This document shows, piece after piece, positions 1,751 to 11,375 of a stretch of 31,567 nucleotides of DNA (position 1 is the first letter of the stretch; every line of letters begins with the position of its first letter). Below the pieces are notes generated by a model that was given only the letters and a program-made list of their open reading frames with translations, was not told where the DNA came from and did not search any database. This DNA is from a virus. A program made the position numbers and the translations under genes. Where the stretch lies: UHGV virus genome UHGV-1390503; one strand, written 5' to 3'.

Positions 1751-1907
1751 GGTAGCTGAGCGCATCGGGGTTACTCGCCGCACACTGAATAACTGGTTAA
1801 AGAGTGGGAAGTTCCCGGATTGTTGTATTCGCATTATGGGCCGACGTCAGCCAGGTACGTTTGACCCGGAGAAAGTGGAAGCATGGATTAAGGAGAATGT
1901 AAAATGA
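1737..1907 (+). CDS. Small HTH DNA-binding protein (AlpA/excisionase-like), 56 aa
   Basis: Not in the track (<60 aa). ATG 1737, stop TGA 1905-1907 overlapping the next ATG (ATGA). The MTQNEVAERIGVTRRTLNNWLKSGKFP segment is a typical helix-turn-helix. Confidence 0.6.
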   Translation: MTQNEVAERIGVTRRTLNNWLKSGKFPDCCIRIMGRRQPGTFDPEKVEAWIKENVK

Positions 1908-2137
1908 CCGAGTTCCAGTCACGCGTATTTACGGCAGTTGTTTCGTTAACCCGCAAAAAAGGGTCATGCAGCGTTATCGACTTGCGCCGTAGTTATTTTA
2001 GGTACTATAGTTCCGCCATTATTGAAGGGTCGTTGAGGGTACTGGTTAAATCTGGTGTCGTGAAAAACACTGGCGGGAAATATAGCGCCGTTGCAGAAGT
2101 TCGTGGAATGACCGCTACTTTAGAAGACCTGGAATAA
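1904..2137 (+). CDS. Hypothetical protein, possible winged-helix; C-terminus ends LEDLE
   Basis: 77 aa ORF with ATG translationally coupled to the upstream gene. Confidence 0.5.
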   Translation: MTEFQSRVFTAVVSLTRKKGSCSVIDLRRSYFRYYSSAIIEGSLRVLVKSGVVKNTGGKYSAVAEVRGMTATLEDLE

Positions 2138-2196
2138 AAGAAAGCCCCGACGCGGTGAACGCCGAGGCCAAATTACTTGCTGAAGGAATATACAAC

Positions 2197-4437
2197 ATGT
2201 CCGATGTAATTTTATCCTACTCGTGGTCCCGTCGCAACGCGCGGGCAGAGAAAAAGGATATAAACGTCAGAACCACTCACACGGCAACACTGGACGACCT
2301 GAAAGAGCTACTCCAGCCGCTTGATGCTGTCCGTGACGGAATTAACCCGAAGACCGCGTCTGGCTATATCACTGCCGCGTGTGACTCTACGCACAGCACC
2401 GTAAAAGACCCTGAAACAGGTGACTTTAAGCAAGCGCGTAAAGGCTTTTTCTATCGCTGCGACGCGTCTGTAAGCAAATCGTCGCTGGCGTATCTGGACT
2501 TCGACAGCGCAACACCGGAAGAGTACCAGGAAGCGGTGCGCCGGGTTAAGCGCAGCCGCCGGGCCATGTGCCTCTATACCACGGCATCGCATACCGAGGA
2601 GTCACCGCGCTTTCGCGTCGTTATGCCTCTTGGACGCCCGGTTGAAGGCGGCGACATCATCCGCGTTCGCCATGGATTACTTGAGCACTTCTTCAAAGGC
2701 ATGGGTGCTGACCGCAGCGGGTTCACTCTGTCGCAACCGATGTACCTTCCGCCTGTTGGCGCTACCGTTATCTGGTCGCGTCGCAACGACCTGATTGAAC
2801 CGGACGAGTTACTGGAAGACATCCCCGCCGTTGACGTCAGCAGCGCATCGGATTACCAGATACCGGAAGAACTGCGCACCGCGTTTACGGATGCGTTCGA
2901 GGCACTGGCGTTTGAGTACGGCGGTGTCATGACGCCACGTGGCCTTAAGATGCCAGCTACGCCGGAACACGCAGAGAACTACAGCGACCCGACGCCGCGT
3001 TCGGACGACTTCCTGCTGTGCTTCCCGCGTGAAGGGTACGAAGCACCTAACGTAACCATGATTCACGACACCGACATTACGGCAACCGAAGGCATGTCAC
3101 CGAAAGAGGTGTGGAAGTACGCGTGCGATGCGACCGGGCTGCCGTTCAGTGAAGTCGCTGAGGCAATCGGCTGGGGTGCGCGTGAATTCGTTTCATGCAG
3201 CCTTGATGACCTGGAAGACGACGAGGACTCAGAGGAGGACGAGTTACCGGAACCGGTAAAGGCTGATTTTGTCGTCGAAGGGTACATGCCGTCAGATTGT
3301 ATCTGGGATATAGTCGGGGAATCTGGCACGTACAAATCGTTCTATACGCTGGGGATGATGTACCTTAGCGCCGCCGGATACCGGTTTGCAGGCGCGGACA
3401 CCCAGCGTTGCCACCATTTCTATATAGATGGTGAGGGGGGCGCAGCTACGCGCACACGTATTGATGCCCTCGCGGCTAAATATGGCGAGGAAGGTAAAGA
3501 TTATGTGCATGTCATCGACATGGGCGAAGTAGGAAAACTGAAAAGTCTGATTAAGCTAATGCGCGAAACCGCGGGGGATGAGCCTATCGGCATGGTCGCG
3601 TTCGACACCCTCAACCAGACGCTGGCCCTGACTATCGATAAGTTCGACGAGAACAGTTCATCAACGGCAATCGGCATGGGCAAAGTTATCGCCATCCTGA
3701 AAGAAGTGCGCGATGCAACTAAAGCCGCGGTAGGCGTTGTCCACCATACGCCGAAAGGTGGAAAGAAAGCCCGCGGCAGTGGGGCGCTGTATGCAGGTGT
3801 CGACGTGGAACTGACAATCGAACGCGCAACAGACCGTCGGATAAATGTATACCACTCTAAATTTAAGCACGGGCCTCAACAGAAAACTGTTGGCATGGTG
3901 CTGGAGTCGGTACAGTTTCGTGAAGCGCCGCCGCCGAAAGAGTACCGCGCGGTTGAGTTCCTGGGCAGCACAGAGGAATACGGCACAATCGTAGACCTTG
4001 ACCTGCCAGAACCACATAAGGCACTTGTGTTAATGCCGTGGGGTTTCGAGCCGTTTAAGACCGACGAGGAGAAAGAGCGGGAAGAAGGGCTGACAAAGGA
4101 AGGTAAAGAAAACGTAAAGAATACTGTAAAACGTGGAAAGGATGAAGGGCGTAAGGAATCAATACTCGCCGCACTGGAAGACCTGCAACAGTCAGACGAC
4201 ACAGGACGAGGTTTTACACAACGGCAGATAGTGGCGAATTCGGGCGACCACGCCATCACCAACCATCATCTCGAGAAGATGCTGAAAGACGGTGAGTTGA
4301 TGCTCGGATGCGATGTTAACGGTGAAGTTATACCTGGCACATACCGGATACCGGAAAAGATGGGTGACAGATTAAGACCAAAGACAATATACGAACCGAA
4401 TGAAATGCTGACAGTGACAGAGGAGGATTTGGAATGA
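2197..4437 (+). CDS. Replicative primase/helicase-type protein with RecA/DnaB-like P-loop ATPase domain
   Basis: The track ORF starts at GTG 2155; ATG 2197 has GAAGGAA upstream. Walker A-like GESGTYKS, Walker B-like VAFD, HHTPKGG motif and a long N-terminal domain of the size expected for a primase; ends TEEDLE. Confidence 0.8.
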   Translation: MSDVILSYSWSRRNARAEKKDINVRTTHTATLDDLKELLQPLDAVRDGINPKTASGYITAACDSTHSTVKDPETGDFKQARKGFFYRCDASVSKSSLAYLDFDSATPEEYQEAVRRVKRSRRAMCLYTTASHTEESPRFRVVMPLGRPVEGGDIIRVRHGLLEHFFKGMGADRSGFTLSQPMYLPPVGATVIWSRRNDLIEPDELLEDIPAVDVSSASDYQIPEELRTAFTDAFEALAFEYGGVMTPRGLKMPATPEHAENYSDPTPRSDDFLLCFPREGYEAPNVTMIHDTDITATEGMSPKEVWKYACDATGLPFSEVAEAIGWGAREFVSCSLDDLEDDEDSEEDELPEPVKADFVVEGYMPSDCIWDIVGESGTYKSFYTLGMMYLSAAGYRFAGADTQRCHHFYIDGEGGAATRTRIDALAAKYGEEGKDYVHVIDMGEVGKLKSLIKLMRETAGDEPIGMVAFDTLNQTLALTIDKFDENSSSTAIGMGKVIAILKEVRDATKAAVGVVHHTPKGGKKARGSGALYAGVDVELTIERATDRRINVYHSKFKHGPQQKTVGMVLESVQFREAPPPKEYRAVEFLGSTEEYGTIVDLDLPEPHKALVLMPWGFEPFKTDEEKEREEGLTKEGKENVKNTVKRGKDEGRKESILAALEDLQQSDDTGRGFTQRQIVANSGDHAITNHHLEKMLKDGELMLGCDVNGEVIPGTYRIPEKMGDRLRPKTIYEPNEMLTVTEEDLE
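4414..4437 (+). repeat. 24-nt repeat GTGACAGAGGAGGATTTRGAATGA (copy 1)
   Basis: Matches 7839-7862 with one mismatch; encodes a C-terminal VTEEDLE, a GAGGAGGA Shine-Dalgarno and the ATGA stop/start overlap. Confidence 0.8.
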
Positions 4438-4631
4438 GCGGTAAATTTAAAGAAGTAAGCGACGAACTGAAAGGTAATAAATACACCAACCACAGAGGTG
4501 AAATAGTAGAAGTTCTTAACGTAGTTCCTTATGGGCGTGGGTATCATGTTGTGTTTAGCTACACAGAGGCTTACAGCGTGTACTGCGGGCTAGGTAAGTT
4601 TCGCAAAAGATACCCGATAAAGGTGCAATAA
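4434..4631 (+). CDS. Hypothetical protein
   Basis: 65 aa ORF with ATG in an ATGA overlap with the primase/helicase stop. Confidence 0.55.
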   Translation: MSGKFKEVSDELKGNKYTNHRGEIVEVLNVVPYGRGYHVVFSYTEAYSVYCGLGKFRKRYPIKVQ

Positions 4632-4636
4632 AAAGA

Positions 4637-4655
4637 AAGGGGCGTTAAGCCCCTT
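4637..4655. terminator. Bidirectional terminator hairpin between convergent genes
   Basis: AAGGGGC-GTTAA-GCCCCTT; on the minus strand it is followed by TCTTTTTATT. The stop of the minus-strand regulator lies in the loop. Confidence 0.55.
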
Positions 4656-4860
4656 CACCGAACGCCAGCCACTTGGCGTCTACTTGCAGCACTTCCGCCA
4701 GTTTAAACAGCGTCGCCGGGCGGACGTCCTGAGTTACCCCGAGTGCAAGCTGGTTGATTGCGCCCTGGGAAACGCCGGCCAGGACAGCCAGACGGCGCTG
4801 GGAGATACCGAGTTCTTTACGGCGTTGTTCTACACGGATGCCTAGTTCTGATGGTTGCAT
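4645..4860 (-). CDS. XRE-family (Cro/CI-type) helix-turn-helix transcriptional regulator
   Basis: 71 aa; the LGISQRRLAVLAGVSQGAINQLALG segment is a canonical XRE HTH; oriented against the flanking rightward genes. Confidence 0.8.
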   Translation of the reverse strand: MQPSELGIRVEQRRKELGISQRRLAVLAGVSQGAINQLALGVTQDVRPATLFKLAEVLQVDAKWLAFGEGA

Positions 4861-4880
4861 GTCAATTACTCCTTAGTCAG

Positions 4881-4910
4881 TTGATATGTGAATAGTACCA
4901 TATTAATTAT
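4881..4910 (+). promoter_or_regulatory. Promoter/operator element copy 2
   Basis: TTGATA-tg-TGAATAGTACCATATTAAT; sigma70-like, with the palindrome only half conserved. Confidence 0.45.
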
Positions 4911-4924
4911 TTTAGAAAAGCCCA

Positions 4925-4954
4925 TTGACAACGTGAATAGTTCACTATTATAGT
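4925..4954 (+). promoter_or_regulatory. Promoter/operator element copy 3 (TTGACA-N18-TATAGT with embedded AATAGT-tc-ACTATT)
   Basis: Consensus -35 TTGACA at 4925-4930, TATAGT at 4949-4954, perfect 6-bp inverted repeat in the spacer; about 30 nt upstream of the RBS of 4986..5495. Confidence 0.6.
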
Positions 4955-4985
4955 TAGCTCATACCAAACGAGAGGAGAGAAACAA

Positions 4986-5495
4986 ATGTTAGAGAAATTC
5001 TTGGTATTACTGGAACGTTTCGTAGTTGCGCATGAACTGATTGCCGCGAATAGTGTGAAACGCCCTGTGCCGCCGACTGAGCGTGCGGGTGAAATGCTTG
5101 TAGACGCGTCGGTTACGGGAGAGGTACTTGAAGTCGACCCAGGTACTGGCGTCGGGAAAGAAATACCGGTTGAAGGTGAAGACATCGTCGACACTAAACC
5201 GGCAGAAGAAGAGAAGCCAAAACGCAAGCCGCGTAAAGCTAAAGTAGAGGAACCGACGCCAGAACCGGAAGAAGAGAAGGAAGAAGTTGATTATAAGTCT
5301 CTGCGCGACCAGATTCAGGCTATCGACGATGCAATTAACGAAGGTCCGAGCGATGCTGCGTGCGATGATTCCGATGAACTGCTGGGAGAGTTCACCGGTA
5401 AGAAGATGAAGATTGCCGCGATTAAAGATGAAGACCTGGCCGAGTATCTGGAACGCCTTACGGCAATCAAGAACAAGTATTTCGAAGAAGAATAA
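4986..5495 (+). CDS. Highly acidic early protein (169 aa), function unknown
   Basis: Strong RBS GAGAGGAGAGA; the C-terminal two thirds are rich in E/D (EEEKPKRKPRKAKVEEPTPEPEEEKEE...DDSDELL); followed by a terminator. Confidence 0.6.
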   Translation: MLEKFLVLLERFVVAHELIAANSVKRPVPPTERAGEMLVDASVTGEVLEVDPGTGVGKEIPVEGEDIVDTKPAEEEKPKRKPRKAKVEEPTPEPEEEKEEVDYKSLRDQIQAIDDAINEGPSDAACDDSDELLGEFTGKKMKIAAIKDEDLAEYLERLTAIKNKYFEEE

Positions 5496-5502
5496 CTATC
5501 AC

Positions 5503-5524
5503 GCGGCCTTCGGGCCGCTTTAAC
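5503..5524 (+). terminator. Rho-independent terminator
   Basis: GCGGCC-TTCG-GGCCGC followed by TTTAACT. Confidence 0.55.
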
Positions 5525-5538
5525 TGAGGGTCGGAATT

Positions 5539-5874
5539 ATGAACTACGAAAATTTAACAGACATAGAAATTAATGCACGTGTCAGCCGCGCACTATACGG
5601 AGATGTTTCGCGAGGGCATCAGATGGAATTAGCTTCTGGAGCAGTTGATTATTGTAATCGAATAGAGGACGCATGGCCTGTTATCCACGGTAACAATATC
5701 TCGATTGTAGCTACAGATTTAGAATGGATCGCTTTACCGGATAATGCGGTTATTGACGGTATTACCGGAGACGCCACCAGTATGATTTATGTAGACGACT
5801 CATGTGTTATTGGTGCAAATCCCCTACGCGCAGCAATGATTGTCTTCCTTGAAATGCAGGAGGTAAAGAAATGA
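5539..5874 (+). CDS. Hypothetical phage protein (possibly DUF2591-like, from weak memory)
   Basis: 111 aa ORF with ATG and GAGGG RBS. Confidence 0.5.
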   Translation: MNYENLTDIEINARVSRALYGDVSRGHQMELASGAVDYCNRIEDAWPVIHGNNISIVATDLEWIALPDNAVIDGITGDATSMIYVDDSCVIGANPLRAAMIVFLEMQEVKK

Positions 5875-6149
5875 TTTACCAACTCTACCAGGCCGTAGAC
5901 AGGCGGGATAACACAGAGGCGCTATGGCTATTACGTGCGCCGTCCGGTGCTCACCAGATGGAAGAGATGGCGTACTTGGGTAAAGTACCGCGGCCTAAGG
6001 ATATAGGCCGTCACTTGTCGCAGATTAAGCGCACGACTTTTGCCAAACCTGACTTTTATGTCTTCGAGTCGATGTATGGGTGGGCTATGCACTGCGAACA
6101 TAAGACACGGCATTTAATCGACCAGTGGGAGAACAGGGTATGTTTGTAA
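5871..6149 (+). CDS. Hypothetical protein
   Basis: 92 aa ORF, ATGA-coupled to the upstream gene. Confidence 0.5.
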   Translation: MIYQLYQAVDRRDNTEALWLLRAPSGAHQMEEMAYLGKVPRPKDIGRHLSQIKRTTFAKPDFYVFESMYGWAMHCEHKTRHLIDQWENRVCL

Positions 6150-6280
6150 TTATGTATTCAATCGGTGAGGAAGAGTACGAACACAGTAGATACCTTACAT
6201 CCGCAGAGGCTGAGAATATGATACACGAACTTGACGCTGGCAGTTTCGACTACGCATGGATTGAGGAGATTACGGAATGA
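6140..6280 (+). CDS. Small hypothetical protein (46 aa), below the track cut-off
   Basis: ATG 6140, stop TGA 6278-6280 overlapping the next ATG (ATGA); acidic product MFVIMYSIGEEEYEH... Confidence 0.35.
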   Translation: MFVIMYSIGEEEYEHSRYLTSAEAENMIHELDAGSFDYAWIEEITE

Positions 6281-6624
6281 CCGATAAATGGTGGCTTAAT
6301 CTGCGAAGTGGCGACAAGGTTTACACGGTCGGCGACCGCAGAAAGAACAGCGGCGTAGCTACTGTGCTACAAAACGGAAAAAAGTATATACACATTGCGC
6401 ATGAGGCTCGCGCGCTCCGCGTGAATAAATCGTCTGGCAGGCTTGAGGATTACCCGAAAACCTTAATATATAAAAGTGAAAAGCATCACATGGAGTCAAT
6501 TGACGCAAGACGACAGTTCGCAGGAATGTTGCAACAGTTAAGTGACTTACATCGTGATGATTCTTTCATTCCCACAGAAGAACAGTTACAGGCATTAAAC
6601 TTGTATTTGGAGGCGGTACGATGA
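6277..6624 (+). CDS. Hypothetical protein
   Basis: 115 aa ORF, translationally coupled. Confidence 0.5.
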   Translation: MTDKWWLNLRSGDKVYTVGDRRKNSGVATVLQNGKKYIHIAHEARALRVNKSSGRLEDYPKTLIYKSEKHHMESIDARRQFAGMLQQLSDLHRDDSFIPTEEQLQALNLYLEAVR

Positions 6625-7862
6625 TTCTAAAAGAACGTGGCGGCAATAACGATGTACACGCCTTACTGTCACCGTCTGGGGCTAAAAAGTGGCTTACGTG
6701 CAGCGCATCACTGGCCTGCGAAAAGGATATTCCTAATACGTCTGGCAAAGCCGCGGTATTAGGTACGGCTATGCACACCATAGCCGAGATGCATCTAAAC
6801 CAATACATCAAAGGCACTGCGTTGCCGTTAGAGCGCGAAGTCGGTGCTTACGTGCTGGATGAAGGCAAAGGCCAGATTAAGGCGCTAATCAGCCCGATGA
6901 AAGGCGCGGTACTGATTACGGCTGACATGATTGAGCAGGTGCGCAAGTACACTGACTACTGCAAACCGATTATCGACGTAGCGACTTACGCCAAGCTGGA
7001 AATGCGCGTCAATCTTACTGAGGTGCTACACCCTGGTTACGAAGGCGTTGAGACCTTCGGAACTGCTGACCTTGTTGCCGTTCAGGAACTGGCTAACACC
7101 GACGAGCACATGCTTATCATCGGCGACCTTAAAACTGGACGGCATCGTGTCGAAGCGAAGGAAAACAAGCAGCTTATGCTCTACGCTCTCGGTGTTTATC
7201 GTCGACTCAAGAGACGTTATAACATCACAGTTGTTCGTCTGGTCATCTTCCAGCCGTATGCCGGTGGTGCGTCGGAGTGGGACATCTCGGTTGAAGGTCT
7301 GGAACTGTTCGCCAAGTTCGCACAGAAACGCGCACTGTTAGCGCTTGATGCGTATTTCCGAGGCAAGAAGAACCTGAAAGCGTCGGACTTCAGGCCGTCA
7401 GTCGATGGTTGCCAGTGGTGTCGTTTCTCGGAGCAGTGTGCAGCGCGTACAAAAACCATTAACGCGGTACTGGCGGAAGAACTGGAGGACGATTTTGCAC
7501 TGGAACTGACGCCGGAGCAACTCGTAACTGAGTATGAGAAGTTGCCGTTGTTGTGTCAGCACATCGACAAGGTTGAGAAAGCTATGGCTGCCGCGTTGCA
7601 TTCCGGTAAGAAAGTTCCGGGGTACAAACTGGTTGAAGGCCGTCCCGGTAATCGCGCGTGGAAAGACGCGGATAAAGTAGCAGAACTCTACGGCGACAAG
7701 CTGACTAAAGAAGTGCTCATGTCACCTACCGAAGCTGTTAAAGTAATACCGGAAGAAGAACTGAAAGACTTCATTACCCGTAAGCCGGGTACACCATGTG
7801 TCGCAACGTCAGACGACAAACGTCCTGAGTGGAATCAGGTGACAGAGGAGGATTTAGAATGA
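6621..7862 (+). CDS. PD-(D/E)XK family nuclease with C-terminal Cys cluster (DUF2800/Cas4-like)
   Basis: 413 aa; D...IGDLKTG...QLMLYALG core and C-terminal CQWCRFSEQC; ends TEEDLE. Confidence 0.8.
   Translation: MILKERGGNNDVHALLSPSGAKKWLTCSASLACEKDIPNTSGKAAVLGTAMHTIAEMHLNQYIKGTALPLEREVGAYVLDEGKGQIKALISPMKGAVLITADMIEQVRKYTDYCKPIIDVATYAKLEMRVNLTEVLHPGYEGVETFGTADLVAVQELANTDEHMLIIGDLKTGRHRVEAKENKQLMLYALGVYRRLKRRYNITVVRLVIFQPYAGGASEWDISVEGLELFAKFAQKRALLALDAYFRGKKNLKASDFRPSVDGCQWCRFSEQCAARTKTINAVLAEELEDDFALELTPEQLVTEYEKLPLLCQHIDKVEKAMAAALHSGKKVPGYKLVEGRPGNRAWKDADKVAELYGDKLTKEVLMSPTEAVKVIPEEELKDFITRKPGTPCVATSDDKRPEWNQVTEEDLE
7839..7862 (+). repeat. 24-nt repeat GTGACAGAGGAGGATTTRGAATGA (copy 2)
   Basis: See copy 1 at 4414-4437. 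Confidence 0.8.
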
Positions 7863-8032
7863 TGGTTTATATTCTCACGCGGTACCACCGCCGATATTCT
7901 ATTCAAGAACTTGATATTATTTCTGTTCACGCTAAACGCGCCGACGCCGACAAAATTGCAGAAGAGAAGAACTCGAAGCATGAGGCGGTGCAGCCATATA
8001 TTTATAAGGTGGTCCCGAAGAAACTTAAATAA
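7859..8032 (+). CDS. Hypothetical small protein (57 aa)
   Basis: The track ORF starts at 7829; the in-frame ATG at 7859 lies in the ATGA overlap downstream of GAGGAGGA. Confidence 0.45.
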   Translation: MMVYILTRYHRRYSIQELDIISVHAKRADADKIAEEKNSKHEAVQPYIYKVVPKKLK

Positions 8033-8118: not shown

Positions 8119-8745
8119 ATGGGACTGACATTAAATCTGCGTAAAGTAAACACTGCTTGGGTTAACGTATTTGAACGCGAAAAAGACCGTGAAAACGATG
8201 ATGGCTCAATCACTAAAGGCCAGTACAGCGCAACTATCATCCTGCCACCTGACCATGCTCAAATCGATGCGCTCTACGACACCGTTTACGCTGTAGTTGA
8301 AGAAGCCTTAGGCGCAGCCGCTGCTGAGAAGTGGATGAGGTCCAACTACGGCGAAGGTAAGCACATGGATAAATGCGCTATTAAAGACATTGCCGAGCGC
8401 GACAATCCGTTTGAAGACTTCCCGGAAGGTTTCTACTTCAAAGCGAAGGCACAGAAACAGCCGCTGATTATAACCTCTAAAAAAGGTGAGACTCAGGTAG
8501 AACAGGACTTCAATGTAGACGGCGAACAGATTGAAGGCGAACAGGTTTACAGCGGATGCGTCGCTAACGTAAGTGTTGAAATCTGGTTTAGCCAGAAATA
8601 TAAAGTCCTCGGGGTTAAACTACTGGGAATTAAATACATTGGTGAAGGTAAAGCGTTTGGTGGTTCTAAAGTCGCTGCAAGCGTCAATGACCTGGAAGAC
8701 GACGAAGAAGATGAAGCACCGCGCCGTGAACGTCGTCGCCGTTAA
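8119..8745 (+). CDS. Phage single-strand DNA-binding protein (DUF2815-like) with acidic C-terminal tail
   Basis: 208 aa; the sequence family is recalled as the SSB partner of DUF2800 nucleases; C-terminal NDLEDDEEDEAPRRERRRR. Confidence 0.7.
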   Translation: MGLTLNLRKVNTAWVNVFEREKDRENDDGSITKGQYSATIILPPDHAQIDALYDTVYAVVEEALGAAAAEKWMRSNYGEGKHMDKCAIKDIAERDNPFEDFPEGFYFKAKAQKQPLIITSKKGETQVEQDFNVDGEQIEGEQVYSGCVANVSVEIWFSQKYKVLGVKLLGIKYIGEGKAFGGSKVAASVNDLEDDEEDEAPRRERRRR

Positions 8746-8804: not shown

Positions 8805-9083
8805 ATGGCAGCGGAACTTAAGAGATACAGACGCATCACATACTGCAAATTTTGTAAGGCAGAAGGTAAAAAAGTTAGAGCAATTTGGATGACTAAATAC
8901 CCTCCAGCTTACGGTGTACGAGACTGGTATAAACACTATGCATGCGAGGAGCATAAACATTTAATAGAAGACACAGACCCAGACCGGACTTGGGCAGAAA
9001 TCATAGAACGCGGCAAAAACAAGAAACAAGAACGCGACGACTATCTCACAGAAGCAGACTATCAGACGTGGTACAGATTATGA
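8805..9083 (+). CDS. Hypothetical protein with Cys/His zinc-ribbon-like pattern
   Basis: 92 aa; CKFC...CEEHKH. Confidence 0.5.
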   Translation: MAAELKRYRRITYCKFCKAEGKKVRAIWMTKYPPAYGVRDWYKHYACEEHKHLIEDTDPDRTWAEIIERGKNKKQERDDYLTEADYQTWYRL

Positions 9084-11254
9084 ATACATTGCTTTACTTA
9101 GACTTTGAAACATTCTCCGAAGCCGATTTAAAGAAAGTCGGTTCCTACGCTTACGCCGAACATCCAACTACCGAAGTGCTAATCTGTACCTATGCTTTTG
9201 ATGACGAGCCTGTGCAGGTGTGGGACTGCACCGACGGCAGCGACATGCCGGGCGATTTGCACCGAGCGCTACGCCGTCTGGTGAAGCCGAACAGCCGTAT
9301 TAAGATGGTGTGGCATAACGGTGGACTTTTCGATAGGCTCATCATGAAACACTGCTGGGGCTTTGATATTCCGGTAAGCAACACCATTGATACGATGATT
9401 TGGGCGTTTCGCCACGCGTTGCCGGGTTCACTTGATGCGTTGTGCGAAGTGCTGGGTGTATCCGCCGACAACGCGAAAGATAAACGCGGCAAGGCGCTGA
9501 TTCAGCGTTTCTCTAAACCGACGCCTAAGAACTACAAAATCCGCCGTTATACCTCCGAAACGCACCCAGACGAGTGGGCGCTGTTCATCAAGTACGCCAT
9601 TAGCGACATCACCGCGATGCGTGAAGTCTTCCATAAACTGCCGCGGTGGGGTAACTCCGAGTTCGAAGACCGTGTGCTGGAACTGGACCAGTTAATCAAC
9701 GACCGCGGGTTTAAGGTTGACGTTGCACTGGCAGAAGCAGCGATTGAAGCCGTGGAGAAGCACAAGGCACAGTTACAGGAAGAAGCCCAACGCAAATACG
9801 GCGGCTCACTTACTGGTAAAGACTTTCTGCCGATTCTGCGTGAACTTGCGCCAGCGCACCGCATCCACAATGCGCAGAAGTCAACGCTGAATGACCTGCT
9901 AGCGGATGATGATTTACCGGACGACGCCCGCACGATTATCGAAATGCGCCTCGGGGCCGCGTCCACGGCATCAACGAAATATAATCCGCTGCTGTTGGGT
10001 CGCTCTTCGGACGACCGGCGCCGTGGTTGCATCCAGTATGGTGGAGCAAAGCGTACGTTACGATTTGCCGGTAAAGGCTTCCAGCCGCAGAACCTGGCGC
10101 GCGGTTACTACCACGATGAGGAACTGGATAAAGGTATTTCCGCGCTACTTAAAGGCCGTGCGCATCGCCGTTTTGATGTAGCTAAGCTAACGGCATCGAC
10201 GGTGCGTAGTTGCATCATACCGGAAGCTGGGCATAAGTTTGTTGTTGCCGACTACTCTAACGTTGAAGGCCGTGGGCTTGCGTGGCTGGCTGGTGAAGAC
10301 GATTTAATCGAAGTATTTGTAAACGGGGTTGATGTGTATAAAAAACTCGCATCAACGGTGTTCAACGTTGCCTATGAGGATGTAACAAAGGACCAAAGAC
10401 AAATAGCCAAAGCAATGGTTCTGGGCCTCGGCTACGCGGGGGGTGTCGGTGCTTTCGTAACGTTTGCTAAAAACTTAGGTCTTGATTTGAACGATATGAC
10501 CAGAACTTTAGACGGTACTTTCCCCGACCATATATGGGCTGCTACCGCGCGTGGGTATGAGTGGGCGCGTATCCAGGAGGCCAAGCGACCGCCACGTCCT
10601 GGTGAAAAGGATGACCGACCATCATATATACTTGATAAGAAAGTATGGAGAACATGTGACGCTCTGAAACGCATGTACCGAGAAGCTAATCCTGCAATAG
10701 TTCAATTCTGGCGTGACATTGAAGATGCGGCTATGGCGGCTATCCGTAATCCCGGTAAAGAGTTCACCGCAGGTCCGCGCGGCGTTAAGTTTTCGCGTAA
10801 CGTAGAAACAGACAACAACGGCAACAAAGTCGCGGGCTGGTGGTTGCGCATGACGCTGCCGTCAGGTCGCGTTATGTCTTACCCCGGAGTCGGGTTAAGC
10901 GTATCAAAAGAGACAGACGAAGAAGGGAAGGTGTCTACTAACGTGCGCATCAAATACCAGGGAGAGAACCAGTTAACACGTCAGTGGGGCTTTCAGTACA
11001 CCTACTCCGGTAAACTGGTGGAAAACTGCACCCAGGCGCTGTGTCGCGATTTGCTGGCTAATGCTCTGCTGAACGTAGAAGCCAACGGCTACCCGATTGT
11101 ACTTCACGTGCACGATGAGATTATCTGCGAGACACCGGATTTACCAGAATACAATGTTGCTGAGCTTGAGCGGTTGATGTGTGAATTACCAGAATGGGCG
11201 GAGGGGTTCCCTCTTGTAGCGGAAGGTCAGGAGTTAAAACGTTATGCTAAGTAA
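9080..11254 (+). CDS. Family A DNA polymerase with 3'-5' exonuclease domain
   Basis: The track ORF starts at 8990; ATG 9080 is ATGA-coupled. Exo I motif LDFETFS; polymerase motif A DYSNVEGR, motif B KAMVLGLGYAGG, motif C HVHDEI. Confidence 0.9.
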   Translation: MNTLLYLDFETFSEADLKKVGSYAYAEHPTTEVLICTYAFDDEPVQVWDCTDGSDMPGDLHRALRRLVKPNSRIKMVWHNGGLFDRLIMKHCWGFDIPVSNTIDTMIWAFRHALPGSLDALCEVLGVSADNAKDKRGKALIQRFSKPTPKNYKIRRYTSETHPDEWALFIKYAISDITAMREVFHKLPRWGNSEFEDRVLELDQLINDRGFKVDVALAEAAIEAVEKHKAQLQEEAQRKYGGSLTGKDFLPILRELAPAHRIHNAQKSTLNDLLADDDLPDDARTIIEMRLGAASTASTKYNPLLLGRSSDDRRRGCIQYGGAKRTLRFAGKGFQPQNLARGYYHDEELDKGISALLKGRAHRRFDVAKLTASTVRSCIIPEAGHKFVVADYSNVEGRGLAWLAGEDDLIEVFVNGVDVYKKLASTVFNVAYEDVTKDQRQIAKAMVLGLGYAGGVGAFVTFAKNLGLDLNDMTRTLDGTFPDHIWAATARGYEWARIQEAKRPPRPGEKDDRPSYILDKKVWRTCDALKRMYREANPAIVQFWRDIEDAAMAAIRNPGKEFTAGPRGVKFSRNVETDNNGNKVAGWWLRMTLPSGRVMSYPGVGLSVSKETDEEGKVSTNVRIKYQGENQLTRQWGFQYTYSGKLVENCTQALCRDLLANALLNVEANGYPIVLHVHDEIICETPDLPEYNVAELERLMCELPEWAEGFPLVAEGQELKRYAK

Positions 11255-11375
11255 ACTGATTATCGCGGTACTGGCGGGATTTGCCGCCGGTGTCTACTGT
11301 CACGAGGGTCAATACGGCATGATTGTCACCGTACTGGGCATGTTCATCGCAATTTATCTGTGGGTGCTGGAATGA
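11244..11375 (+). CDS. Small hydrophobic protein (43 aa), predicted membrane
   Basis: Not in the track. MLSKLIIAVLAGFAAGVYCHEGQYGMIVTVLGMFIAIYLWVLE; stop overlaps the next ATG. Confidence 0.3.
   Translation: MLSKLIIAVLAGFAAGVYCHEGQYGMIVTVLGMFIAIYLWVLE

Follow-up and report, generated by a model that had tools for sequence, protein, structure and literature searches.

The C-terminal tip of bacterial SSB (…DDDIPF; MDFDDDIPF in E. coli) is an interaction hub that is read by many DNA-metabolism proteins. In the replisome of phage T7, which combines the SSB gp2.5 with a family A polymerase, gp5, the tails of the helicase-primase gp4 and of gp2.5 are alike, acidic, and carry a key hydrophobic residue. 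Both look bipartite (gp2.5 ..EESWDEDD..EDGDF; gp4 ..ESTDWSNDTDF) and end in an essential Phe. The front basic patch of gp5 is the docking site of these tails, and the gp4 peptide DTDF is seen bound in PDB 6P7E (PMC12339929). The T7 tail is required for interactions with partners, nuclease stimulation included: that of gp2.5 interacts with both the helicase and gp5, and the gp6 nuclease is stimulated only in its presence (PMC4124056). An acidic tail is also known for the ORF6 SSB of phage Enc34, where the last ordered tail residues enter a groove in the beta-sheet of an adjacent SSB in the crystal; gp2.5 and two further DUF2815 structures are reported to show this contact as well (PMC5686142). 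Finally, nuclease, SSB and polymerase genes of this kind have been described together as the duf2800-gp2.5-polA module (PMC8093625).

The window analysed here is a stretch of 31,567 nucleotides that carries the same three module genes in the same order and in one orientation; all features described below lie on the plus strand. The window belongs to a Kagunavirus-like siphophage, and the source phage is a phage of E. coli. The DUF2800 / PD-(D/E)XK (RecB/Cas4-like) nuclease (6621..7862, phrog_69) matches PF10926 over the full profile (E = 2.9e-67) and also PF12705. One small ORF separates it from the T7 gp2.5-type SSB / annealing protein (8119..8745, phrog_112; DUF2815, Enc34_ssDNA-bd), which matches PF10991 (E = 1.2e-15) and PDB 4JG2 (E = 3e-4), and whose AF2 model reaches a pLDDT of only 36. 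The family A DNA polymerase PolA (9071..11254; PF00476, E = 4.9e-22) has no acidic tail, and an acidic C-terminus is likewise absent from all 225 related PolAs. Upstream of the module lies the replicative helicase-primase (2155..4437, phrog_3228), where AAA_25 (residues 366-536) was the sole domain detected in a Pfam search. This protein has no detectable similarity to its T7 counterpart: BLASTP against gp4 gave a best E of 0.57 across 18 residues. It is preceded by p77, a 77-aa protein (1904..2137, phrog_5169) with a predicted winged-helix fold and a C-terminal tail. The AF2 model of p77 (pLDDT 90) shows the topology H-H-H-beta-hairpin, and its best Foldseek matches are winged-helix domains (MotA, LexA, RPA32C), with weak E-values.

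Three of these proteins end in nearly the same peptide: VTEEDLE in the helicase-primase and the nuclease, and ATLEDLE in p77 (2114..2137 with its TAA stop; EDLE encoded as GAA GAC CTG GAA). The two VTEEDLE tails with their stops are encoded by 24-nt strings at 4414..4437 and 7839..7862 that agree at 23 of 24 bases, the lone difference being TTG against TTA; no comparable pair appeared in 100 shuffles. The similarity ends at the edges of the strings, with mismatches at 19 of the 30 positions that precede them. Within the window, a C-terminal [DE]DL.{0,3} occurs only in the primase, the nuclease and p77 among 369 ORFs (stop-to-stop, at least 40 aa, six frames). The tetrapeptide [DEN]DLE is found five times in those ORFs, always within four replication proteins; in the close relative Bas73, the remainder of the genome lacks it. 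The fourth protein is the SSB, which shares an exact 19-nt string, ATGACCTGGAAGACGACGA, with a linker of the primase. The copies (3206-3224, SLDDLEDDE, in the primase; 8687-8705, SVNDLEDDE, in the SSB) have the same reading frame, and a longer match of 29 nt still shows 86% identity. The linker motif SLDDLEDDEDSEEDE (3199..3243) lies at the primase/helicase junction and is the primase's second copy, whereas the SSB motif SVNDLEDDEEDE (8680..8715) stands directly behind the OB fold (…GKAFGGSKVAA-). Its NDLEDDEEDE region is acidic and disordered, as in the gp2.5 structural class; the Arg-rich basic end that follows, APRRERRRR (8716..8742), is atypical. By position, this proximal motif aligns with DDFDD in other lineages and with SDAYD in Enc34. 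The nuclease likewise carries an internal acidic motif, AEELEDDFAL (7473..7502), in an insertion-prone linker where alignments of distant homologs give the consensus DFxD. All the sequence statements of the original prediction, regarding tails, repeated strings, Shine-Dalgarno sequence and ATGA overlaps, hold on re-examination. That prediction had kept the DLEDDE string of the SSB and primase linker apart from the tails; it is in fact the tail motif itself, here opening the disordered tail of the SSB.

The peptide is strongly conserved in 84 related loci, with nuclease identities of 46-100% and primase identities of 26-100%. A C-terminal [DE]xDLx(0-3) is present in 79/83 nucleases and 78/80 primases, nearly always as (T/S)-(D/E)-x-D-L-x(0-3), while it ends only 11 of about 20,000 other ORFs of these loci, seven of which form one family of 63-68 aa ending in TATDEDLE. 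Homologs of p77 end in [LP]EDLE in 23 of 23 cases. When eight divergent primases are compared over their final 100 residues, just three columns are invariant, two of them being the D-L pair, which is also invariant in the nuclease alignment. Primase alleles at 100%, 54% and 32% identity have the same last 18-19 residues save for one T/V position, and the last 20 codons plus stop (RPKTIYEPNEMLTVTEEDLE, 4375..4437) are near-identical across divergent alleles. In the SSB, DLEDD is invariant among alleles of 61-78% identity, and all SSBs of the clade have (A/S)(T/S)D-x-D-L-(D/G/E)DD directly behind the OB fold. This retention is independent of codons and of gene context: the peptide persists through differences of 5-18 mismatches per 24 nt, in primases that are encoded on the opposite strand by unrelated codons, and in 23 nucleases and 33 primases without an overlapping downstream gene. 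Without coupling, the peptide also occurs as VSEEDLE, spelled with GAA GAA and closed by TAA, and the Bas73 primase keeps the peptide before a TAG stop and a terminator-like hairpin. If the peptide were a by-product of coupling to the next gene, as had been considered, it should be lost wherever the overlap is absent; it is not, since uncoupled and opposite-strand homologs retain it. These comparisons indicate that selection acts on the peptide itself, and not on a by-product of a coupling cassette.

The nucleotides, on the other hand, do bear the mark of coupling. In both 24-nt copies, GAGGAGGA (4420-4427 and 7845-7852) lies about 6 nt 5' of an ATG, which forms an ATGA overlap with the stop (4434-4437 and 7859-7862). 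Both sites are thus predicted coupled pairs, with starts at 4434 and 7859, leading into a 65-aa ORF (4434..4631, phrog_36357) in a variable accessory slot behind the primase and a 57-aa ORF (7859..8032) in a similar slot behind the nuclease. The last codons of both genes would therefore double as ribosome binding site and start/stop overlap for these accessory genes. Among the related nucleases, GAGGAGG accompanies the ATGA overlap, being present in 22 coupled genes while uncoupled ones include 23 without it and 3 with it (Fisher p = 8e-11). It is this second role, which fixes synonymous codons, that accounts for the near-identity of the two strings. A single mismatch in 24 nt is unremarkable because peptide and SD/ATGA constrain the codons: the probability is 0.13 with both fixed, against 0.008 with free codons. 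ATGA coupling is an ordinary feature, found with the same GAGGAGGA spacing and TGA-overlapping ATG at both sites of the window and here laid over a conserved peptide, so that it explains codons and not residues.

A reused SD and ATGA cassette that merely happens to encode these residues is accordingly very improbable as the source of the tails. In its favour are the correct spacing of GAGGAGGA in both copies, the association of GAGGAGG with the overlap, and the use of the junction by at least nine unrelated small ORF families behind the nuclease and at least six behind the primase. However, it is contradicted by the uncoupled, TAG-terminated and opposite-strand homologs described above, by p77, which has EDLE from different codons and without overlap, and by the occurrence of the motif at the internal site of the SSB and in distant lineages. 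The proposed by-product thus stands solely for the synonymous-codon identity. Recombination or gene conversion between copies, with the direct repeats as a hotspot and a functionless peptide, would be another way to keep the strings alike, and the 23/24 agreement fits it. Homology breakpoints of relatives also cluster at both stops (30 HSP ends at 4433-4440 and 40 at 7859-7863), and the last 60 nt are near-identical on divergent primase bodies, with short HSPs beginning near 4375. Nevertheless, the primase and nuclease slots have no downstream gene family in common, the 3.4 kb between the repeats is present in every relative examined, no deletion variant was seen, and mismatches between the two copies range from 1 to 8 within genomes, close relatives included. 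With peptide and SD/ATGA held constant, one mismatch is also to be expected in 13% of cases. The hotspot that had been suggested finds no support here, and maintenance of the similarity by recombination is quite unlikely. The same conclusion follows from codon usage: in 90 genomes, identical motif residues shared codons in 267 of 593 cases, with 282 expected, and since there is no excess, gene conversion fails to explain the match between tails.

Beyond the close relatives, distant duf2800-gp2.5-polA modules show that nuclease and SSB have a common acidic-hydrophobic motif in their tails, mostly DDFDD, whose form changes from lineage to lineage in both proteins. In Enc34, the nuclease and SSB tails read ..AYDDEDE..DEV and ..AYDEDE..DEV, and the C-termini of primase, ORF3 and TerS are likewise (D/E)EV. 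In YeP5 each of the two proteins has ..DF(E/D)..AESLI, and in Staphylococcus phage P240 they have ..AEDDFDKL and ..AEDDFDEL. Further lineage-specific pairs occur in ewii, RcRios and many others, while in Vibrio phage VchM-138 the acidic tail is missing from nuclease and SSB alike. The motif lies within the last 22 residues of 108 of 146 DUF2800 representatives, no two of which exceed 50% identity. The ORF C-terminus closest to the SSB tail, out of a median of 109 ORFs, is that of the nuclease in 138 of 243 loci. Across 34 lineages with nuclease identities below 60%, the nuclease/SSB tail score was 26.6 within genomes against 20.6 between genomes (z = 7.7, p ≤ 1e-4), part of the latter baseline being due to generic composition, as acidic disordered tails are common. 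The lineage of the window scores low (17, rank 15/34) because its motif is short. As the loci are phylogenetically related, their counts overstate the independent events, which amount to roughly ten co-variations.

These comparative data strongly support the common docking peptide that the original prediction had put forward as one option. A peptide kept by selection for binding to one common receptor, in the manner of T7, is the probable explanation of the tails, on comparative grounds and by analogy. The tail is a short linear motif in which acidic residues surround a single hydrophobic one, here (V/A)-T-(E/L)-E-D-L-E. It is borne by helicase-primase, nuclease and p77, and by the start of the disordered tail of the SSB (NDLEDDE), with extra copies in the internal linkers of primase and nuclease. 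All bearers probably dock to one receptor in the phage replication and recombination machinery. As for its identity, PolA is a tentative candidate, suggested by the T7 analogy. When PolA is aligned with the front basic patch of T7 (KWKRRW), only a weakly basic hairpin, 'VKFSR' plus an insertion, emerges as a tentative counterpart. The concave beta-sheet of the SSB OB domain is also possible, if a little less so; by residue count, the residues inserted in the Enc34 crystal are ..TSDAYD, that is, the motif itself. Another phage or host protein would account for the remaining probability.

The comparison with known systems shows both the reach of this analogy and its limits. As in T7, helicase-primase and SSB tails are alike, but instead of an essential terminal Phe the window tails end in D-L-E, with an invariant Leu followed by 0-3 residues. 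The nuclease and the winged-helix protein bear the tail as well, the SSB motif is internal and followed by the Arg-rich end, and the receptor is here a candidate. With the tip of bacterial SSB the window tails share an acidic run with hydrophobic residues on a disordered tail, although the OB fold of the window SSB is of T7 type and not bacterial, and the bacterial D-D-D-(I/L)-P-F is absent, with the SSB ending in APRRERRRR and the tails in EDLE. The logic is also reversed: bacterial SSB offers one tail to pockets on many partners, whereas here many partners carry the same tail.

Two other readings give the tails a function without a common phage receptor. Each tail could be an independent autoinhibitory DNA mimic folding onto the DNA-binding site of its own protein, with the likeness arising only because any mimic of this kind is acidic and has a single residue that is aromatic or hydrophobic. 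According to Marintcheva 2008, as cited in PMC5686142, the T7 gp2.5 tail and ssDNA compete for the protein's own cleft; tail-less Enc34 SSB acquires dsDNA binding, and in an AF2 prediction the gp2.5 tail occupies the groove of its own protein (PMC12339929). This reading is nonetheless unlikely, as the lineage-specific co-variation in non-homologous proteins exceeds composition, with forms such as DFANE(D/N)F, DFDGEF and (D/E)F(T/A)EFI and terminal AESLI, DDLA or DEV. In addition, the motif is also present on a small winged-helix protein, other small ORFs and Enc34 TerS, and in primase allele swaps the tail follows the genome and not the gene body. Docking to a host protein, for instance by hijacking readers of the bacterial SSB C-terminus and with them host replication or repair factors, has a similarly small chance of being correct. 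The common form DDFDD…(I/L)(P)F does resemble the E. coli SSB tip, and the SSB of a Bacteroides phage ends in DDDPIFD. Yet the tails differ across phages of closely related enterobacterial hosts (EDLE in Kagunavirus, DEV in Enc34, AESLI in YeP5-like phages), similar DDFD forms recur in phages of Gram-positive bacteria, Bacteroides and alpha-proteobacteria, and the EDLE of the window is unlike DDDIPF.

Nowhere in the papers searched is the DUF2800 nuclease said to have its own copy of the tail motif of the SSB, primase or small proteins to bear one in some lineages, or nuclease and SSB tails to co-vary. The (T/S)-(E/D)-x-D-L-E shared by four replication proteins of this phage is the form taken here by a tail motif of nuclease and DNA-binding protein that co-evolves in thousands of related phages. 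Being shared and co-evolving, this tail points to a common docking site like that of T7, to which its bearers would be recruited and where they may compete or hand off to one another, as gp4 and gp2.5 do on gp5.

By sequence identity, the window can be placed among the Kagunavirus-like E. coli siphophages of the Guernseyvirinae, and megablast finds it about 90% identical to phages M01, Bas73 and SZH-1. [quoted passage not shown] Nuclease, SSB and polymerase together make up the module named duf2800-gp2.5-polA (PMC8093625). One gene of the variable block (4645-4860) lies on the minus strand, inside the plus-strand replication cluster; it encodes a 71-aa Cro/CI-type HTH protein and is annotated as a transcriptional repressor in relatives. 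Between SSB and polymerase, a 92-aa ORF with CxxC-like cysteines (8805-9083) overlaps the polymerase ORF if the latter is extended in frame to a TTG start further upstream (8990-11254); the polymerase start annotated in relatives is the ATG at 9071. Near the beginning of the window, two tandem paralogous genes on the minus strand (97-297 and 315-512) encode proteins of 66 and 65 aa that both begin MSKWIKCSE.MPG and finish THWMPLP.PP.V, and their DNA repeats (95-135/313-353 and 256-322/471-537), being 79-88% identical, indicate a local duplication. A 19-nt direct repeat, ATTA(A/T)CGCGGTACTGGCGG, with 18 of 19 bases shared between the nuclease gene (7458-7476) and a site just past the polymerase stop (11259-11277), is possibly a chance match.

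As the original prediction stated, primase and nuclease both end in VTEEDLE and p77 ends in ATLEDLE. The tail and motif peptides of the window are EPNEMLTVTEEDLE, PEWNQVTEEDLE, GMTATLEDLE and ASVNDLEDDEEDE. The 24-nt strings encoding the primase and nuclease ends (4414-4437 and 7839-7862) match at 23 of 24 bases, a pair that arose in none of 100 shuffles, and the 30 nt on the 5' side of each copy are unrelated (19 of 30 positions mismatch). The predicted Shine-Dalgarno sequence and overlap are likewise present at both copies, with GAGGAGGA some 6 nt ahead of the ATG, which overlaps the TGA stop. The 19-nt string common to the primase linker (3206-3224) and the SSB (8687-8705) is an exact repeat in the same frame and encodes (D/N)DLEDDE. 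It had been regarded as separate from the tails; the repeat itself stands, but its separateness does not, as the SSB string is the same motif. When all six frames of the window are scanned for ORFs, only the four replication proteins contain the tetrapeptide [DEN]DLE or carry [DE]DL at the C-terminus, and neither turns up in the other 27.5 kb of the related phage Bas73. After its acidic motif, the window SSB finishes in an Arg-rich basic stretch, APRRERRRR (8716-8742). In relatives the SSB ends grow into alternating acidic and basic repeats, with DDEDEAPRKRRK occurring about three times in Bas84 (L004); such an Arg-rich, repetitive end is unusual for an SSB tail.

Divergent relatives were collected by tblastn with spread sampling and subsequent locus retrieval, and the sample comprised 84 related loci with nuclease identities of 46-100%. 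In these loci, a C-terminus of the form [DE]xDLx(0-3) is present in 79 of 83 nucleases and 78 of 80 primases, and in just 11 of the other ~20,000 ORFs. Seven of these 11 belong to a single family of 63-68 aa ORFs ending in TATDEDLE, in a lineage without p77. A member of this family (L056:12390-12581, with homologs in L057-L065) lies downstream of the SSB in that distant lineage; at another locus (L020:11209-11421), a 70-aa ORF after the nuclease ends in KKEDLE. Many lineages have a primase of only 26-33% identity, encoded on the opposite strand with different codons, and keep the motif nonetheless: such primases end in ..SDEDLNS, ..TDDDLKD or ..EEEDLEN, and the nucleases of the same genomes in ..SDEDLS, ..TDEDLSNE or ..TDNDLAN. 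Over the final 100 residues, an alignment of eight divergent primases retains only three invariant columns, two of which are the D and L of the motif, and both residues are invariant in the nuclease alignment as well. The tail is also retained in homologs that lack a coupled downstream gene, as in the Bas73 primase, where VTEEDLE is followed by a TAG stop and a terminator-like hairpin, with no gene behind it. Kagunavirus carries at least three helicase-primase alleles (100%, 54% and 32% identical to that of the window), whose last 18-19 residues match except for one T/V position, indicating that the tail goes with the genome and not with the gene body. The divergent bodies join this common end at a mosaic junction some 60 nt upstream of the stop codon (primase genes of L013, L019, L021, L022, L025, L031, L032, L035 and L045). 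Selection acts on the tail as a peptide.

The other origin proposed for the tail, a by-product of a reused translational-coupling cassette, thus explains the nucleotide identity but not the peptide, which is kept where the overlap is missing. Among close relatives, the nuclease tail is encoded by two haplotypes: GT(A/T)ACAGAGGAGGATTT(A/G)GAATGA, overlapped by the downstream start, and GTTAGTGAAGAAGATTTGGAATAA, which encodes VSEEDLE and ends in a TAA stop without overlap. In the nuclease gene, GAGGAGG tracks the ATGA overlap (22 coupled genes have it; of the uncoupled ones, 23 lack it and 3 have it; Fisher p = 8e-11, uncorrected for phylogeny), and in the primase gene this association is weak (p = 0.07). 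The probability of one mismatch or fewer in 24 nt is 0.008 if only the peptide is shared, and rises to 0.13 if the Shine-Dalgarno sequence and ATGA are shared too, so that the near-identity of the strings can be attributed to one peptide combined with one coupling solution. The suggestion that the cassette acts as a recombination hotspot found no support. The homology between relatives breaks exactly at both stop codons, and the slots after nuclease and primase hold at least nine and at least six unrelated small-gene families, respectively. However, none of the 22 families compared is common to both slots, and no related genome lacks the 3.4 kb stretch that separates the repeats; no evidence of recombination between the two copies was therefore found.

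The motif extends to the SSB and beyond the close relatives. In every SSB of the 'DL' clade, (A/S)(T/S)D-x-D-L-(D/G/E)DD comes directly after the OB fold (...GEAFGG...) and matches the nuclease and primase tails of its own genome. The nuclease tails of distant modules align position by position with that of the window, in a layout of a conserved ...GKPxxAPxSDxRPA, 5-8 residues and then (D/E)(D/E)-Phi-(D/E). Most lineages have Phe at the Phi position; Enc34 has Tyr and the window Leu. Thus, the nuclease and SSB end in ..GAYDDEDEDDDEV and ..DAYDEDEDEWDEDEV in Enc34, in ..NDFENVDETESAESLI and ..DDFDEITEGADAESLI in YeP5, and in ..AEDDFDKL and ..AEDDFDELDTDDEDFL in Staphylococcus P240, whose primase-helicase ends in ..ESLEDLI. 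Similar nuclease/SSB pairs are found in APSE-3, Wes44, a Bacteroides phage, RcRios and ewii. In Enc34 (L086), the primase ends in ..DPFDDEDEV, and the terminase small subunit TerS (..EADDDEV) and ORF3 (..AGEEEEV), at 10312-10893 and 3681-4055, end like the ..DEV of primase, nuclease and SSB, a hint of a possible link between packaging and this hub.

The analysis was widened to 252 loci whose genes were identified by HMM. In 138 of 243 loci, no other ORF (out of a median of 109) matches the SSB tail as well as the nuclease does. Over 34 lineages, nuclease and SSB tails score 26.6 within a genome versus 20.6 between genomes (z = 7.7, p <= 1e-4). Locus counts are phylogenetically non-independent, and about ten independent co-variation events are estimated. 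Gene conversion between the two motifs was considered and rejected, since the shared residues show no excess of shared codons (267 of 593 observed, 282 expected), so the match is kept up at the level of the protein. Among representatives of the 11,394 DUF2800 homologs detected, chosen to be at most 50% identical to one another, 108 of 146 hold the motif within their last 22 residues, and the 17 closest to the window all have Leu. None of 225 PolAs has an acidic tail. Vibrio phage VchM-138 (L255) lacks it in both the nuclease (8971-10152) and the 294-aa gp2.5-like SSB (10374-11258), a joint loss that could serve as a natural control. These comparisons establish, at the level of sequence, that the motif is shared, selected and co-varying.

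What the tail binds can be approached from known systems. The front basic patch of the T7 gp5 polymerase is where the acidic tails of gp4 and gp2.5 dock, and a gp4 tail peptide has been seen bound in PDB 6P7E (PMC12339929); the tail of gp2.5 has the helicase as a further partner, and stimulation of the gp6 nuclease depends on this tail (PMC4124056). In the crystal of the Enc34 SSB, the last ordered tail residues insert in the concave beta-sheet of a neighbouring SSB; two other DUF2815 structures and gp2.5 are reported to show this contact too (PMC5686142). Counted on the sequence with the numbers of that paper, the inserted residues are ..TSDAYD, the motif itself. Together, the T7 docking and the Enc34 contact make a shared docking peptide, with moderate confidence, the best-supported model, in which nuclease, primase, p77 and SSB would be recruited to one place through a single putative receptor, either PolA or the SSB OB domain, and might be exchanged there. 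Only a weakly basic hairpin of the window PolA aligns with the T7 patch, and an AF2 model of the SSB from a 12-sequence alignment was unusable (pLDDT 36). Rather doubtful is a more specific arrangement, an inverted SSB hub. Here the proteins that bear a copy of the SSB's own tail (the nuclease throughout the family of more than 10,000 detectable DUF2800 homologs, joined in some lineages by the primase, a winged-helix protein, further small proteins and even TerS) would dock in the OB-domain groove that is otherwise filled by the tail of a neighbouring SSB. In this way the carriers would read, cap or open the filaments that SSB forms on ssDNA, with co-evolution of peptide and groove in each lineage.

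Among the carriers, p77 is confidently predicted to be a small winged-helix protein (pLDDT 90), which would fit a DNA-binding or adaptor protein brought to this hub. An origin of p77 as a duplicate of the primase C-terminal winged helix and tail found no support (nothing by BLASTP, 4% probability by hhalign).

The resemblance to T7 lies in the likeness of the gp2.5 and gp4 tails to each other and in their two-part layout, as in duf2800-gp2.5-polA modules. Both T7 tails (L252; gp2.5 ..EESWDEDD..EDGDF, gp4 ..ESTDWSNDTDF) share a proximal (S/T)(D)W(D/S) and a terminal DF. However, the window helicase-primase has no detectable relation to gp4, the key residue is Leu instead of a terminal Phe, the carriers include a RecB/Cas4-like nuclease and a winged-helix protein, and the SSB motif is internal, followed by the Arg-rich end. 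No description of a nuclease sharing the SSB tail motif, or co-varying with it, was found in the open-access papers searched. The principle is already known from T7, and the new element would be the shared, co-varying tail of nuclease and SSB. The interaction surfaces of DUF2800 nucleases and gp2.5-type SSBs are of current interest, since both proteins were recently found to trigger retron defence systems; a link between the tail and the sensing of phage SSB by retron-Eco8 was rejected, as published data describe the C-tail as dispensable.

The value of the finding lies in an interaction rule, simple and open to testing, rather than in a new principle. The rule applies to a very common but little studied module, present in Kagunavirus and Jerseyvirus therapy candidates, Staphylococcus and Streptococcus prophages, APSE, Liberibacter prophages, Bacteroides phages and chi-like phages. 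A peptide of 6-8 residues would offer a handle for pull-downs, inhibitors and engineering. According to the rule, the proteins bearing the tail motif of a lineage would form one interaction network, which would put small proteins such as p77 in the replisome, would account for the survival of the local tail through allele swaps, and predicts incompatibility when modules are exchanged between lineages.
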